Shown here: positions 1,734 through 6,678 of the stretch, piece after piece
Position numbering within the stretch: the stretch's first letter is position 1
Layout: the number at the start of each line of letters is the position of its first letter
From: a virus
Taxonomy: Duplodnaviria > Heunggongvirae > Uroviricota > Caudoviricetes
IMG/VR virus record: IMGVR_UViG_2778261570_000006
Direction: 5' to 3' (one strand)
DNA: 8,071 nt
Position numbers and translations under genes: made by a program
Notes under the pieces: generated by a model
Databases searched by the model: none
The model's input: the letters and a program-made list of their open reading frames with translations, nothing else
What the model was told of the DNA's origin: nothing

Positions 1734-1807
1734 GTTTTTCTCCTTAATTAAGGTTGAGCGAATCCCTGCCATTGCTGGCATAAATTCAGTTTCGAATAGT
1801 CAGTTAA

Positions 1808-1978
1808 TTAAAGTTCGTGTGCCATCTGGTCTTTTTCGGCACAACTTTCACTACAATATTTTTTCATTTCCGTCGTTGGGATAACTCCACGCATGAAATG
1901 AAGTGGTCTTTTAATGGTTTTGCTTTCTTCAACGTCTTTATTGCAAAGGTGGTAAGCACATTTTATTTTCTTAGTCAT
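1808..1978 (-). CDS. ydaE: YdaE-like small cysteine-rich (probable zinc-binding) protein, 56 aa
   Basis: ORF below the track's size cut-off, found by hand: [60 protein letters not shown] lies 8 nt upstream. Its ATG overlaps the upstream stop in a TAATG junction. Length and Cys pattern fit my recollection of Rac YdaE, and it sits between the kilR-like and racC-position genes. Confidence 0.55.
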   Translation of the reverse strand: MTKKIKCAYHLCNKDVEESKTIKRPLHFMRGVIPTTEMKKYCSESCAEKDQMAHEL

Positions 1979-2199
1979 TACCATGACTCCGCCTTTACAG
2001 GTAAACCATCACGACCGAGGAAGACTTTAATCATGCAGTCAGTAATGCATGTTTTTGTGGTCAGGCTACGGATATAAAGTTTTCGCTTTTTAATATTGTT
2101 TGCCGAGGCAATATATGTCCGGCCTTCATGAAGAACATAATCGCCAGGAGTCACACACTGACGTGGTATTTCATCAGTTCCGAAGTGATGTGCAATCAT
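1978..2199 (-). CDS. kilR: KilR-like cell-division inhibitor (killing protein), 73 aa
   Basis: Track ORF 1978..2211; the start is moved to the second ATG (2199..2197), which has GGAG 6 nt upstream (GGAGATAATTATG). Translation [35 protein letters not shown]... The 73-aa length and position match my recollection of Rac KilR. Confidence 0.6.
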
Positions 2200-2385
2200 A
2201 ATTATCTCCATTTTTACAAATGAACTTTGTTGATGCGGTGCCTGGTGCCTCCAGGTGACGTTAACCAGTTAACAATTAACGCCGGATACAGAGAACCCAC
2301 CCATAAGAACCAATACGGAAGTCAACTGGCCTTTTTAACTGTTCCGCGTGCGCTGAGCCGCATTCACCGCATCACAAAATTCACT

Positions 2386-2428
2386 TTAAAAAGGGCGGAC
2401 ATCAGCCAGCAATGAAACTGATGCCGCC
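2386..2428 (-). terminator. Intrinsic terminator oriented leftward, upstream of the kilR-like gene
   Basis: Minus strand reads GGCGGCATCAG - 12-nt loop - CTGATGTCCGCC (about 11 bp with one bulge), then CTTTTTAAAGTGAATTTTG. On the plus strand the stem is followed by AAAAAGG, so it is unidirectional. Confidence 0.5.
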
Positions 2429-2652
2429 AAAAAGGTAATCAACATGGGTTGTTGCAGCGGGGTTGTCACTCAGGCGTATGGTCAACCTGACAACCCGGTG
2501 TTATCTCGAGGAAAGGATAGCCTCGCCATACTTACCACCGCGCCATTTCGCGGATTGCCACAACCGGAAGCGCACGGTCGAAGAAATTTAACGACAAGCC
2601 TTCTAAGGGAAAAACACCTCCTCCGTGCGCCTTCGTGTTGTGTGCCTGTCTT

Positions 2653-2680
2653 TTTACCACTTCAGGCTCGGTGGTATACT
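2653..2680 (+). promoter_or_regulatory. Sigma70-type promoter with extended -10 driving the zinc-ribbon gene
   Basis: -35 TTTACC (2653-2658), 16-bp spacer, TG at 2672-2673, -10 TATACT (2675-2680). Predicted start near 2687, then SD AAGGA (2701-2705) and ATG 2713. Confidence 0.5.
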
Positions 2681-2712: not shown

Positions 2713-2991
2713 ATGGTAATTACTTCACTCTGCCCTGTTTGTTTGGCTACATCTTCTGTGCAGACTTTAGTTGAAGGACAGCGCGAATTTTTGAAAATTT
2801 ATCATTGTCCAAATCATGGTAGTTTTGCCGTTCTTCCTGATCTGGACGTGAAATTGCAAGCAATGAGGTGTTCGTCGGGTTATAAGATTGAGCATTCGGA
2901 AGAGGCTATCAGGCTCGATGCACGCTTACGTGAAAGCATACGCCCAGTAGATGGTCCTCAGTCGAAAATTCCAGTATTCCGCTCTGTCTAG
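2713..2991 (+). CDS. Small zinc-ribbon-like protein (92 aa), unknown function; rightward gene in the sieB position
   Basis: In frame with track ORF 2635..2991; start set at ATG 2713 with SD AAGGA 7 nt upstream. Translation MVITSLCPVCLATSSVQTLVEGQREFLKIYHCPNHG... has a CxxC ... HCPxH arrangement. Family not recognised. Confidence 0.6.
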   Translation: MVITSLCPVCLATSSVQTLVEGQREFLKIYHCPNHGSFAVLPDLDVKLQAMRCSSGYKIEHSEEAIRLDARLRESIRPVDGPQSKIPVFRSV

Positions 2992-3389: not shown

Positions 3390-3418
3390 ATATTAGTTAT
3401 GTTCATATTGATGATCAA
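3390..3418 (-). promoter_or_regulatory. pL-like leftward early promoter with overlapping palindromic operator-like site
   Basis: On the minus strand: -35 TTGATC (3418..3413), 17-bp spacer, -10 TAATAT (3395..3390). The 13-bp palindrome ATTGATGATCAAT (3407-3419) overlaps the -35. TTGATAAAAA recurs at 3436-3445 and 3479-3488. Confidence 0.45.
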
Positions 3419-3511: not shown

Positions 3512-3539
3512 ACAAAAAAACCGCCAAAAATGGCGGTTT
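3512..3539 (-). terminator. Intrinsic terminator of the repressor gene
   Basis: Stem CCGCCA (3521-3526) / TGGCGG (3531-3536), extendable with A-T pairs, loop AAAA. On the minus strand it is followed by TTTTTTT (complement of 3514-3520), starting 20 nt after the repressor stop at 3559-3561. Confidence 0.6.
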
Positions 3540-3558: not shown

Positions 3559-4023
3559 CTATTTCTTCATGCGTTTTTGAGCTGCCAGCATATTTTCAAA
3601 TGCTTCTTTGTAGAGTTCATTCTGACCTTTAAGTCTTTCGATTAGTTTTGCTTTTTCTGATTCGGGAAGGATATCAAAAAGATCTAGTAAATCAGCTTGT
3701 TGCTTGTTAACCATCCGCCAACCTTCGCCTTCGAAACTTTCGTCATAAGTTCCTGAGGAACGGACGTAATTCATCAGATCAGCTAAATCAGGCCTCAACT
3801 CTTCAGGCTTAACTCTTAGTAATACAGCGAATTTTAATGCCGCATCAGTATTAAGTGGAGCCTTTCCGTTGAGATAATGGCTAACCGCAGATTGCGCCTC
3901 AAAACCCATTAGCTCGGCAGCAAGCTCCTGAGTCAGTTTGAGCTCTCTTTTTTTTGCATCCCAGATTGCGCGCAGACGTTGCGTAGCTTCCGGCGATGCG
4001 ATTTCTTCGCGTTTTCTTCTCAT
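3559..4023 (-). CDS. racR: XRE-family HTH prophage repressor (RacR/DicA-like), 154 aa
   Basis: Track ORF. The segment LTQELAAELMGFEAQSAVSHYLNGK looks like an HTH. The C-terminal LPESEKAKL...LAAQKRMKK resembles my recollection of the DicA tail. It is divergent from the Cro-like gene and has its own terminator. The racR symbol is given by synteny; orthology is unverified. Confidence 0.6.
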   Translation of the reverse strand: MRRKREEIASPEATQRLRAIWDAKKRELKLTQELAAELMGFEAQSAVSHYLNGKAPLNTDAALKFAVLLRVKPEELRPDLADLMNYVRSSGTYDESFEGEGWRMVNKQQADLLDLFDILPESEKAKLIERLKGQNELYKEAFENMLAAQKRMKK

Positions 4024-5462: not shown

Positions 5463-5501
5463 GTCGAACCTCCTTTGGTTCTGTTGATTGGGGAATCACA
5501 G

Positions 5502-5530
5502 ATTATATCCGGAGGAAGGTTCGACACCAG
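5502..5530 (-). promoter_or_regulatory. Candidate promoter for the 151-aa minus-strand ORF
   Basis: Consensus -10 TATAAT on the minus strand, 39 nt upstream of the ATG. The -35 region (CTGGTG) is a poor match. It shares the intergenic space with the RBS of the plus-strand initiator gene. Confidence 0.3.
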
Positions 5531-5541
5531 ATGAGGCAATT

Positions 5542-6678
5542 ATGGTTAAGGCTAAAAACATGCCAAATCCCATGCCAAATCCCATGCCAAAAACTAAGGC
5601 AAACAACGAGCCTTATCGCAAGGTAAAAATAACGATATGGGATGATCCCAAATTTAGGGCGTTATCTCCTCTGCCTCCAAGTGGACAGAGTTTGTTTATT
5701 TATCTGCTGACCAGTCCATTTACCGGGATTATTCCTGGGTTGTTTAAAGCCGGGCGGGCAGCAATGGCTGAAGAGTTGGGGTGGGATATCGAAGCCTTTG
5801 ACTTAGCCTTAGGCGAAGCCATGAATCTTGGCATGGTGAAAGCAGATATCAAAGCCAGAGTTTTTTGGCTCCCGAATGCTGCGAAACACAATCCGCCAAA
5901 CTCGATAAATGTCATTAAATCCTGGGCAAAGGCATTCGCTTTAATTCCTGATTGCCCTCTCAAATGGGAGGCCAGGGAATCGCTGAGAGCCGCGTCCTAC
6001 GGGGTTTCTGAGGCTTTGGGGATGGCATTCGATAAGGCAATCCCTTTGCCTGAGGATAAGCCTAAGGATAAGGCTAACGCTTTGTCATGCGGTATCCAGA
6101 TAACAGATAACAGATATATAAACCCCACACATAACGCGCGCGTGCGCGAGAGTGTTCCGGCCAGTGAGGCAAATGGCGTGCCGTTGCAGACAGCGGAACC
6201 TGATTACCTGGAAGGCCTGAGCGAACCCATCGGGAAATTTCCGATGACCGATGGCTGGCATCCGTCGCCGGATTTTCGACGACGGGCTGCGCTGTGGGGC
6301 GTGGCTCTTCCTGAGCCGGAATTTACACCAGCTGAACTTGCCGCCTTCCGGGACTACTGGACAGCGGAGGGGAAAGTTTTCACGCAGGTTCAGTGGGAGC
6401 AGAAATTCGCCCGTCACGTACATCACGTCAGGGCGCAGGTTAAACCAGTCAGCAAGGGGGGGAACCATGCAGCAACGCCAGGTGGCACCGCATCACGGGC
6501 AGTTCAGGAAATTCGGGCAGCACGTGAGCAGTGGGAACGTGAAAACGGATTTATCCTCGACGGAAACGGCGTGGAAGCTGTGGGAACTCATGGGGGAGGT
6601 TTATTCGAACCGCTGGACCCAGAAGAACGGGGCCGCACCTTCGAAGCTCTGGATTGCACAGATTGGTGCGATGACTGA
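5542..6678 (+). CDS. Phage replication initiator / replisome organiser with DnaT-like C-terminal domain (O / YdaU-position), about 378 aa
   Basis: Track ORF 5488..6678 begins at TTG. The first in-frame ATG with an SD is 5542 (GAGG at 5533-5536, 5-nt spacer). The C-terminal block [43 protein letters not shown] resembles DnaT-like domains as I recall them. The last 212 nt overlap the P-like frame. Confidence 0.6.
5560..5594 (+). repeat. In-frame 12-bp tandem repeat ATGCCAAATCCC, about 2.9 copies, encoding [11 protein letters not shown]
   Basis: Exact copies at 5560-5571 and 5572-5583, and a partial copy at 5584-5594. Each unit starts with an in-frame ATG. Confidence 0.85.
6031..6148. repeat. 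Iteron-like GATAA repeats, AT-rich tract and GC palindrome inside the initiator gene; candidate replication origin
   Basis: GATAAGGC at 6031-6038, GATAAGCCTAAG / GATAAGGCTAAC at 6055-6078, CAGATAA x2 plus CAGATAT at 6097-6117, ATATATAAA, then ACGCGCGCGTGCGCG at 6134-6148. This sits in the predicted linker between the N-terminal domain and the DnaT-like domain. Confidence 0.35.

Follow-up and report, generated by a model that had tools for sequence, protein, structure and literature searches.

DicF is a classic prophage small RNA (sRNA) that affects cell division, metabolism, phage resistance and EHEC virulence. In K-12 it is annotated as a 53-nt RNA about 175 nt upstream of dicB in the Qin prophage, and it represses ftsZ via its 3' region and xylR via its 5' end. 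DicF binds Hfq (PMC5069750) and has validated targets (PMC5069750, PMC8175672). RNase III generates the 5' end of its 190-nt form and RNase E that of its 53-nt form, with no internal promoter detected in Qin (bioRxiv 10.1101/2023.04.14.536235). The 3' end arises either by Rho-independent termination, which gives the 53-nt form, or when RNase III cuts transcripts that have read through (PMC5069750). Partial read-through and RNase III processing have both been described for Qin (PMC5069750; bioRxiv 10.1101/2023.04.14.536235).

The Rac prophage of K-12 carries a barely studied neighbor of DicF, the 98-nt ncRNA kilS (b4833), which is annotated about 175 nt upstream of kilR. KilS accumulates in stationary phase, and its own transcription start was assigned from global TSS data (Bar et al. 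2021, PMC8175672); only three RIL-seq interactions are reported for it, yncL being a RIL-seq partner (PMC8175672). The paper that named KilS mentions neither DicF nor prophages (PMC8175672), and the kinship between the two RNAs may be undescribed in the searchable literature. Expression of kilR in K-12 Rac is subject to NusG-dependent silencing and goes up when OxyS depletes NusG (PMC5793797).

The window analyzed here is the whole stretch of 8,071 nt from the IMG/VR record. We consider it likely that the element described below is the 3' end of a DicF/KilS-family prophage sRNA gene, situated in the early-left leader of the kilR-ydaE-racC-recE operon of a Rac-like E. coli prophage. The features of this region are as follows, in the order of leftward transcription.

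2567..2634, minus strand: long stem with arms 2634-2623 and 2577-2567 (fold; position of the Qin RNase III site by alignment).
2451..2565, minus strand: structured leader in which GGUUGUGGC/GCUGCAAC is predicted to form a helix enclosing three hairpins; its homologue in Qin is the body of the 190-nt DicF precursor.
2429..2450, minus strand: single-stranded 5' segment AACCCAUGUUGAUUACCUUUUU, a candidate seed unlike those of DicF and KilS; contains the mini-ORF ATG.
2386..2445, minus strand: 19-codon mini-ORF, judged a chance frame (translation MLITFLAASVSLLADVRPF followed by a stop; no SD; frame not conserved).
2394..2428, minus strand: terminator hairpin, sRNA 3' module, with loop UCAUUGCU at 2415-2408 (scan, fold, and Rfam DicF model over 2444-2393).
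2388..2392, minus strand: terminator U run, predicted sRNA 3' end (sequence; tail matches K-12 dicF and kilS).
2192..2391, minus strand: STnc100-like conserved leader from the sRNA to kilR (Rfam RF02076, 33.2 bits, E = 2.3e-4, gathering score 47).
1978..2199, minus strand: kilR, 73 aa, cell-division inhibitor behind the terminator (phrog_294, "Kil protein for bacterial septation inhibition", E = 2.7e-36).

The early region is Rac-like. It comprises an HTH repressor gene at 3559-4023(-), YdaS/YdaT-like genes, an ORF of 99 aa and a zinc-ribbon ORF on the plus strand, downstream of which lie the sRNA and then kilR, ydaE, racC and recE. The kilR gene is annotated by RefSeq in near-identical genomes, and its ATG at 2199, preceded by GGAG at 2209-2206, is the K-12-type start of the 73-aa protein. 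The zinc-ribbon ORF (92 aa, 2713-2991(+), weak match to PF23545) is found where K-12 Rac has sieB, with a TG-extended −10-like promoter site ahead of it at 2653-2680(+); since it lies on the opposite strand, leftward transcripts run antisense through it. A clean terminator was seen 3' of the repressor gene (region of 3390-3418(-) and 3518-3539(-)), and the AT-rich stretch after it, ahead of the 99-aa ORF, holds a candidate early-left promoter (TTGATC, 17 nt, TAATAT) with 8 of 12 matches, under the scan threshold. Two plus-strand ORFs over the region of the element (62 and 91 aa) were discarded, being broken by single-base indels relative to Qin. Elsewhere in the window, a 396-aa ORF at 5488-6678(+) carries a short PNPMPNPMP repeat at its N terminus.

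The initial annotation had placed a strong leftward intrinsic terminator about 190 nt upstream of kilR, and this terminator proved to be real, on the basis of fold statistics and of homology to the hairpins at the mapped 3' ends of DicF and KilS. The terminator scan revealed a 13-bp leftward hairpin at 2428-2394(-), in which GGCGGCAUCAGUU (2428-2416) pairs with GGCUGAUG-U-CCGCC (2407-2394), leaving U2399 bulged in the 3' arm and a loop of 8 nt (2415-2408(-)). On the 3' side follow C2393, UUUUU at 2392-2388 and then AAAG. The hairpin has an MFE of −21 kcal/mol (z = −4.66), with none of 200 dinucleotide shuffles as stable, and when it is folded with 255 nt of upstream context all stem pairs have probabilities of 0.975 or more. 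The terminator scan of the whole window was not significant overall (16 found versus 9.3 ± 3.1 expected), and the evidential weight therefore comes from the fold statistics and the homology. The plus strand reads AAAAAGG 3' of the hairpin, with no T run, which indicates that termination is leftward only. The kilR ATG (2199) lies 189 nt beyond the last U of the run (2388).

The U tail has just five U's, and those of DicF and KilS are identical to it; indeed, the same CCGCCCUUUUU tail is found at the annotated 3' ends of K-12 dicF (Qin locus L003, position 4435) and kilS (Rac locus L002, position 4406). The hairpin is most likely more than a bare operon terminator, namely the 3' module of a DicF/KilS-family sRNA gene. 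The T run just before the hairpin (2429-2433) is polymorphic, with five T's in the window and in its exact (60/60) complete-genome matches and four in TUM1881 and most IMG/VR relatives, so that the distance from the 5' segment to the hairpin differs.

The Rfam DicF model (RF00039) matches 2444-2393(-) with 32.4 bits (E = 4.5e-4), below its gathering score of 48. In a calibration with the same model, K-12 DicF scored 76.7 bits and K-12 KilS 39.1 bits, which puts the window RNA at a distance from the DicF consensus similar to that of KilS, an experimentally verified sRNA. KilS itself, at L002 4411-4466, has this score together with the flanks and the slot of DicF.

A three-way alignment of the window with Qin and Rac showed where the loci agree. 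About 120 nt upstream of the core are near-identical between the window and Qin, whereas about 45 nt directly downstream (CCGCCCUUUUUAAAGUGAAUUUUGUGAUGCGGUGAAUGCGG...) are near-identical between the window and both Qin and Rac, as is the leader just before the start codon. Differences are confined to a core of about 45 nt, in the 5' segment and the loop. KilS has exactly the same stem as the window, GGCGGCAUCAG/CUGAUG-U-CCGCC. A short form of the RNA would carry the same 3' module as two Hfq-dependent sRNAs, and may bind Hfq as they do.

An independent promoter of the KilS type is doubtful in the window, judging from its letters. The window keeps the TTAAAT box (2591-2586(-)), but it has CG where the presumed extended −10 of KilS has TG, and its −35 is poor; the promoter scan detected none at the position equivalent to the KilS start.

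The upstream leader is approximately 90% identical to that of Qin. The 255-nt upstream fold (−92 kcal/mol, z = −3.2) is made up of the long stem and then the closed three-hairpin junction, so that the order from 5' to 3' is long stem, junction (2565-2451), a small CAACA/UGUUG hairpin, the free segment UGAUUACCUUUUU and the terminator. By alignment, the RNase III end of Qin maps near position 2570 of the window, in the 3' arm of the long stem. The 5' end mapped in Qin and the folds together lead us to expect two forms that both end at 2388-2392, one long (about 183 nt) and one short (about 45 to 60 nt). An RNase E consensus (RN|WUU) is not evident by eye where the Qin site aligns. K-12 Rac has a short leader that does not contain the three-hairpin junction.

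For the leader at 2451-2634(-) no Rfam family was matched. Covariation in an RNAalifold alignment of 84 unique sequences is dominated by indels and near-identity, leaving too few informative pairs. A tRNA-like nature, suggested by the junction shape, was rejected because ARAGORN gave no match. Antiterminator RNAs of the put type are elements of about 70 nt with two stem-loops just downstream of an early promoter, which act in cis on RNA polymerase. Compared with this element, known from HK022, the leader has a different predicted architecture, a closed three-hairpin junction of about 115 nt rather than two stems, and no HK022 record is among the 30 listed of 77 phage matches.

The position occupied by this RNA is a widespread and variable slot. 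At least 120 IMG/VR contigs contain a match to the 29-nt downstream flank, and a 23-nt version of it was found among species-representative genomes only in Escherichia and Shigella, plus four metagenome bins of unrelated taxa that are probably contaminant contigs. More than 100 prophage loci carry at least 32 distinct cores in the slot, and all 32 end in a terminal hairpin with a five-U run. Seeds, hairpins, leaders (long or short) and downstream genes (dicB, kilR, an MLNVAIEN... ORF or others) are combined in many ways: the DicF seed is found with a KilS-like stem and the KilS seed with a DicF-like stem. The 5' segment of the window, CCCAUGUUGAUUACCUUUU, is kept intact next to two hairpin types that are unrelated to each other, and the gene downstream of it can be kilR or dicB, although seed invariance in these flank-filtered loci is partly by construction. 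Of the 120 matches of a 14-mer seed scan of IMG/VR most were due to chance, and the analysis was restricted to those that also have the downstream flank.

A count over 5426 complete E. coli genomes gave 3947 with the DicF core, 1331 with the KilS core and 77-85 (~1.5%) with that of the window; in the INPHARED set of sequenced phages the window core was not found. UMNF18 is one of the strains with an exact 60/60 match, SE11 (NC_011415.1, near 1781402) matches at 98.3%, and the slot as such is present in ~4700 E. coli genomes. No RefSeq feature lies under the core matches, canonical DicF included, so that this absence says nothing specific about the window allele.

sRNA-17 of E. coli K1 (PMC7719688) was considered as a further member and set aside, given its different prophage context (ymfK-yfdP), different flanks and lack of a match to the DicF model. 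This 193-nt RNA is reported on the strand that reads AAAAGAGCGGTACCAG... (PMC7719688). In the sense of the operon, the region (2391-2590(+) of locus L260, E. coli 120899) has a DicF-like terminator, UUUGGCGGUACCAG...CUGGUACCGCUCUUUUU, at its end. The arrangement is analogous, and homology to the DicF slot was not detected.

We tentatively propose, as a possible reading, that the core of about 60 nt, flanked by conserved processing and leader blocks and placed upstream of prophage division-inhibitor genes, is a recombining sRNA cassette site, at which Escherichia prophages swap seed, hairpin and loop, leader type and toxin gene, and that the window allele is functional and has moved from ftsZ to other targets. 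If this were the case, related prophage sRNAs would differ in their host targets behind a single scaffold for biogenesis and termination.

A simpler explanation is that the hairpin is a mere intrinsic terminator or insulator that keeps kilR silent in the early-left operon, the terminated RNA being a by-product with no function in trans. It would account for the hairpin and U run being the best-conserved part of all 32 cores while the rest varies freely, and it fits the finding that searches of ftsZ, yncL and the window itself predicted no target of significance for the window RNA, as well as the three RIL-seq interactions that are all KilS itself has. Set against this are the two RNAs that end at the homologous hairpin, both Hfq-dependent sRNAs, with validated targets in the case of DicF (PMC5069750, PMC8175672), and the persistence of the same 5' segment over two unrelated hairpin types and two downstream genes. 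We therefore regard the by-product explanation as unlikely.

Less likely still, and in our view improbable, is that the window RNA works as an orthologue of DicF and continues to repress the translation of ftsZ through antisense pairing. It shares the slot and the family of DicF, it adjoins a second FtsZ inhibitor, kilR, and by inspection its loop starts with GUUUC, the complement of GAAAC just upstream of the ftsZ AUG. The searches speak otherwise. The accessibility-corrected scan recovered the control duplex of DicF (nucleotides 32-53) with ftsZ (−28 to −7), with a hybridization energy of −22.7 and a net energy of −7.9 kcal/mol, whereas the window RNA gave only a 6-bp contact at −46 to −39 (hybridization −5.4), off the RBS. 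A plain duplex search of ftsZ with the window RNA did no better than shuffles, 65% of which equaled it. With nothing at the RBS in either search and a positive DicF control, ftsZ was rejected as a target. The weak scan beside the working control shows that this allele has lost the ftsZ antisense region of DicF.

Two other candidate targets were rejected. The 5' segment of the window RNA pairs with the yncL SD (hybridization −9.7, net −6.4), but DicF scores yncL as well or better (−7.6), which makes the result uninformative. CCUUUU is generically anti-SD-like. A 10-nt perfect complement of the sRNA loop and 3' arm, GCCAGCAAUG, was also observed at 1766-1779(-), just upstream of racC. In K-12 Rac this match is interrupted, and across loci it is not associated with the sRNA motif; it was put down to chance.

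The 19-codon frame at 2445..2386(-), which had been noticed in the initial annotation as running through the terminator stem, translates as stated there. It was described there as lacking an SD and as most probably fortuitous, and both points were borne out: the best anti-SD duplex at −21 to −1 has an energy of +1.9 kcal/mol, versus −6.4 for the kilR start, and the frame of the window is kept in 0 of 28 related IMG/VR loci (17 distinct sequences). All of these have the ATG and the 5' segment in common, yet only MLITF is shared between the frames, as four versus five T's and the hairpin swaps alter the rest. In the common four-T allele, to which TUM1881, the closest relative among complete genomes, belongs, the frame is MLITFWRHQFHCWLMSALFKVNFVMR; with the other hairpin type it is MLITFWRVSVFCFPL. 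The ATG is absent from DicF and KilS, and in the fold of the window RNA the UG of the AUG is paired in the CAACA/UGUUG hairpin. That the frame encodes a leader peptide and that translating it adjusts termination (attenuation), as the initial annotation had thought conceivable, is extremely improbable in spite of the ATG and first five codons being conserved wherever the 5' segment occurs and the frame ending inside the U run, since the fold of the hairpin with 255 nt of upstream context predicted no alternative structure competing with the terminator, and the start has neither an SD nor a conserved peptide behind it.

The relation of the terminator to kilR was also examined. The initial annotation had concluded that kilR, ydaE, racC and recE would depend on antitermination or on a separate promoter. 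The position of kilR behind the terminator was confirmed; the need for antitermination or for a promoter of its own is logically plausible but found no support, and the promoter scan detected no promoter-like site between the terminator and kilR. The hairpin would therefore double as a gate on the toxic gene. The 99-aa ORF was not retained as an antiterminator, having no match to any Pfam or PHROG family. Passage of the polymerase through partial read-through, NusG-dependent effects or a dedicated factor is possible.

The roughly 200 nt between the terminator and kilR contain a long-range helix, 2375-2365/2240-2230. The STnc100 model matches full length in the window, in Qin (L003 4433-4642) and in Rac (L002 4223-4409), with scores of 28-34 bits, all below the gathering score of 47. 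Relative to the Qin and Rac leaders, the window has an insertion of about 13 nt around 2322-2300, which includes TTGACT. A partial "DicB" pseudogene is annotated by RefSeq within the non-coding kilR leader of TUM1881 (L001 4327-4401, corresponding to approximately 2226-2300(-) of the window); it is probably an annotation artefact arising from N-terminally extended DicB entries.

By homology with dicBF of Qin and kilS of K-12 Rac, the following course of events may be envisaged. Early leftward transcripts would traverse the structured leader, and many of them would stop at 2392-2388. The released RNA would be trimmed at the RNase III-type stem to the long form of about 183 nt, with a 5' end near 2570, and a cut in the AU-rich stretch 2445-2430 would yield the short form of roughly 45-60 nt, consisting of the free 5' segment, the internal U run, the GC-clamped hairpin and the U tail. 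This short form may act in trans through its 5' segment, its loop or both, on targets other than the ftsZ site of DicF. Transcripts that read through, in whatever fraction, would carry the STnc100-like leader and kilR, and the same hairpin would limit expression of the toxic gene.

DicF, KilS, the window allele and dozens more share one conserved slot, and it is chiefly the target-selecting parts that vary among them, which makes the slot a simple comparative handle on the diversification of prophage sRNAs. The RNA described here is of the kind that is missed by annotation with model thresholds. For the locus itself, the oddity of a terminator with an ORF in it is replaced by an ordinary explanation, and the hairpin is identified as a probable gate before a toxic gene.

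The known systems resemble this locus to different extents. The region from the terminator to kilR fits the full model of STnc100, a Hfq-bound RNA of Salmonella, including the long-range helix; this part is a neighboring leader, distinct from the terminator and sRNA element. The control of Rac kilR by NusG and OxyS (PMC5793797) follows the general logic of the initial annotation, in which termination upstream of or within the operon sets expression. That control acts via NusG (PMC5793797).

With DicF, the window RNA shares the slot after a conserved structured leader, about 175-190 nt upstream of a division-inhibitor gene, as well as near-identical flanks, the STnc100-like leader downstream and the GGCGG...CCGCCC-U5 terminator. 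In contrast, DicF precedes dicB while the window RNA precedes kilR, the loop and upper stem are unlike, and the ftsZ-complementary 3' region is lost. The 5' segment of DicF, UUUCUGGUGACG, which is the xylR-pairing end, is absent; the window has (A)UGUUGAUUACCUUUUU in a region about 9 nt shorter.

KilS differs from the window RNA in its short body of 48 nt with the seed region ...CAUUGCUGUGUGUAGUCCU, in place of which the window has a Qin-type junction of about 115 nt and a different 5' segment, and in its loop, for which this comparison gives 19 nt versus 12 nt in the window. The two have in common the downstream gene kilR at a similar distance, the same downstream leader, the GUGCGC(C/U)UCCGGUUGU box that makes up the first ~16 nt of the KilS RNA, and an identical terminator stem and tail (GGCGGCAUCAG...CUGAUGUCCGCCCUUUUU), which in both lies in the kilR 5' UTR.
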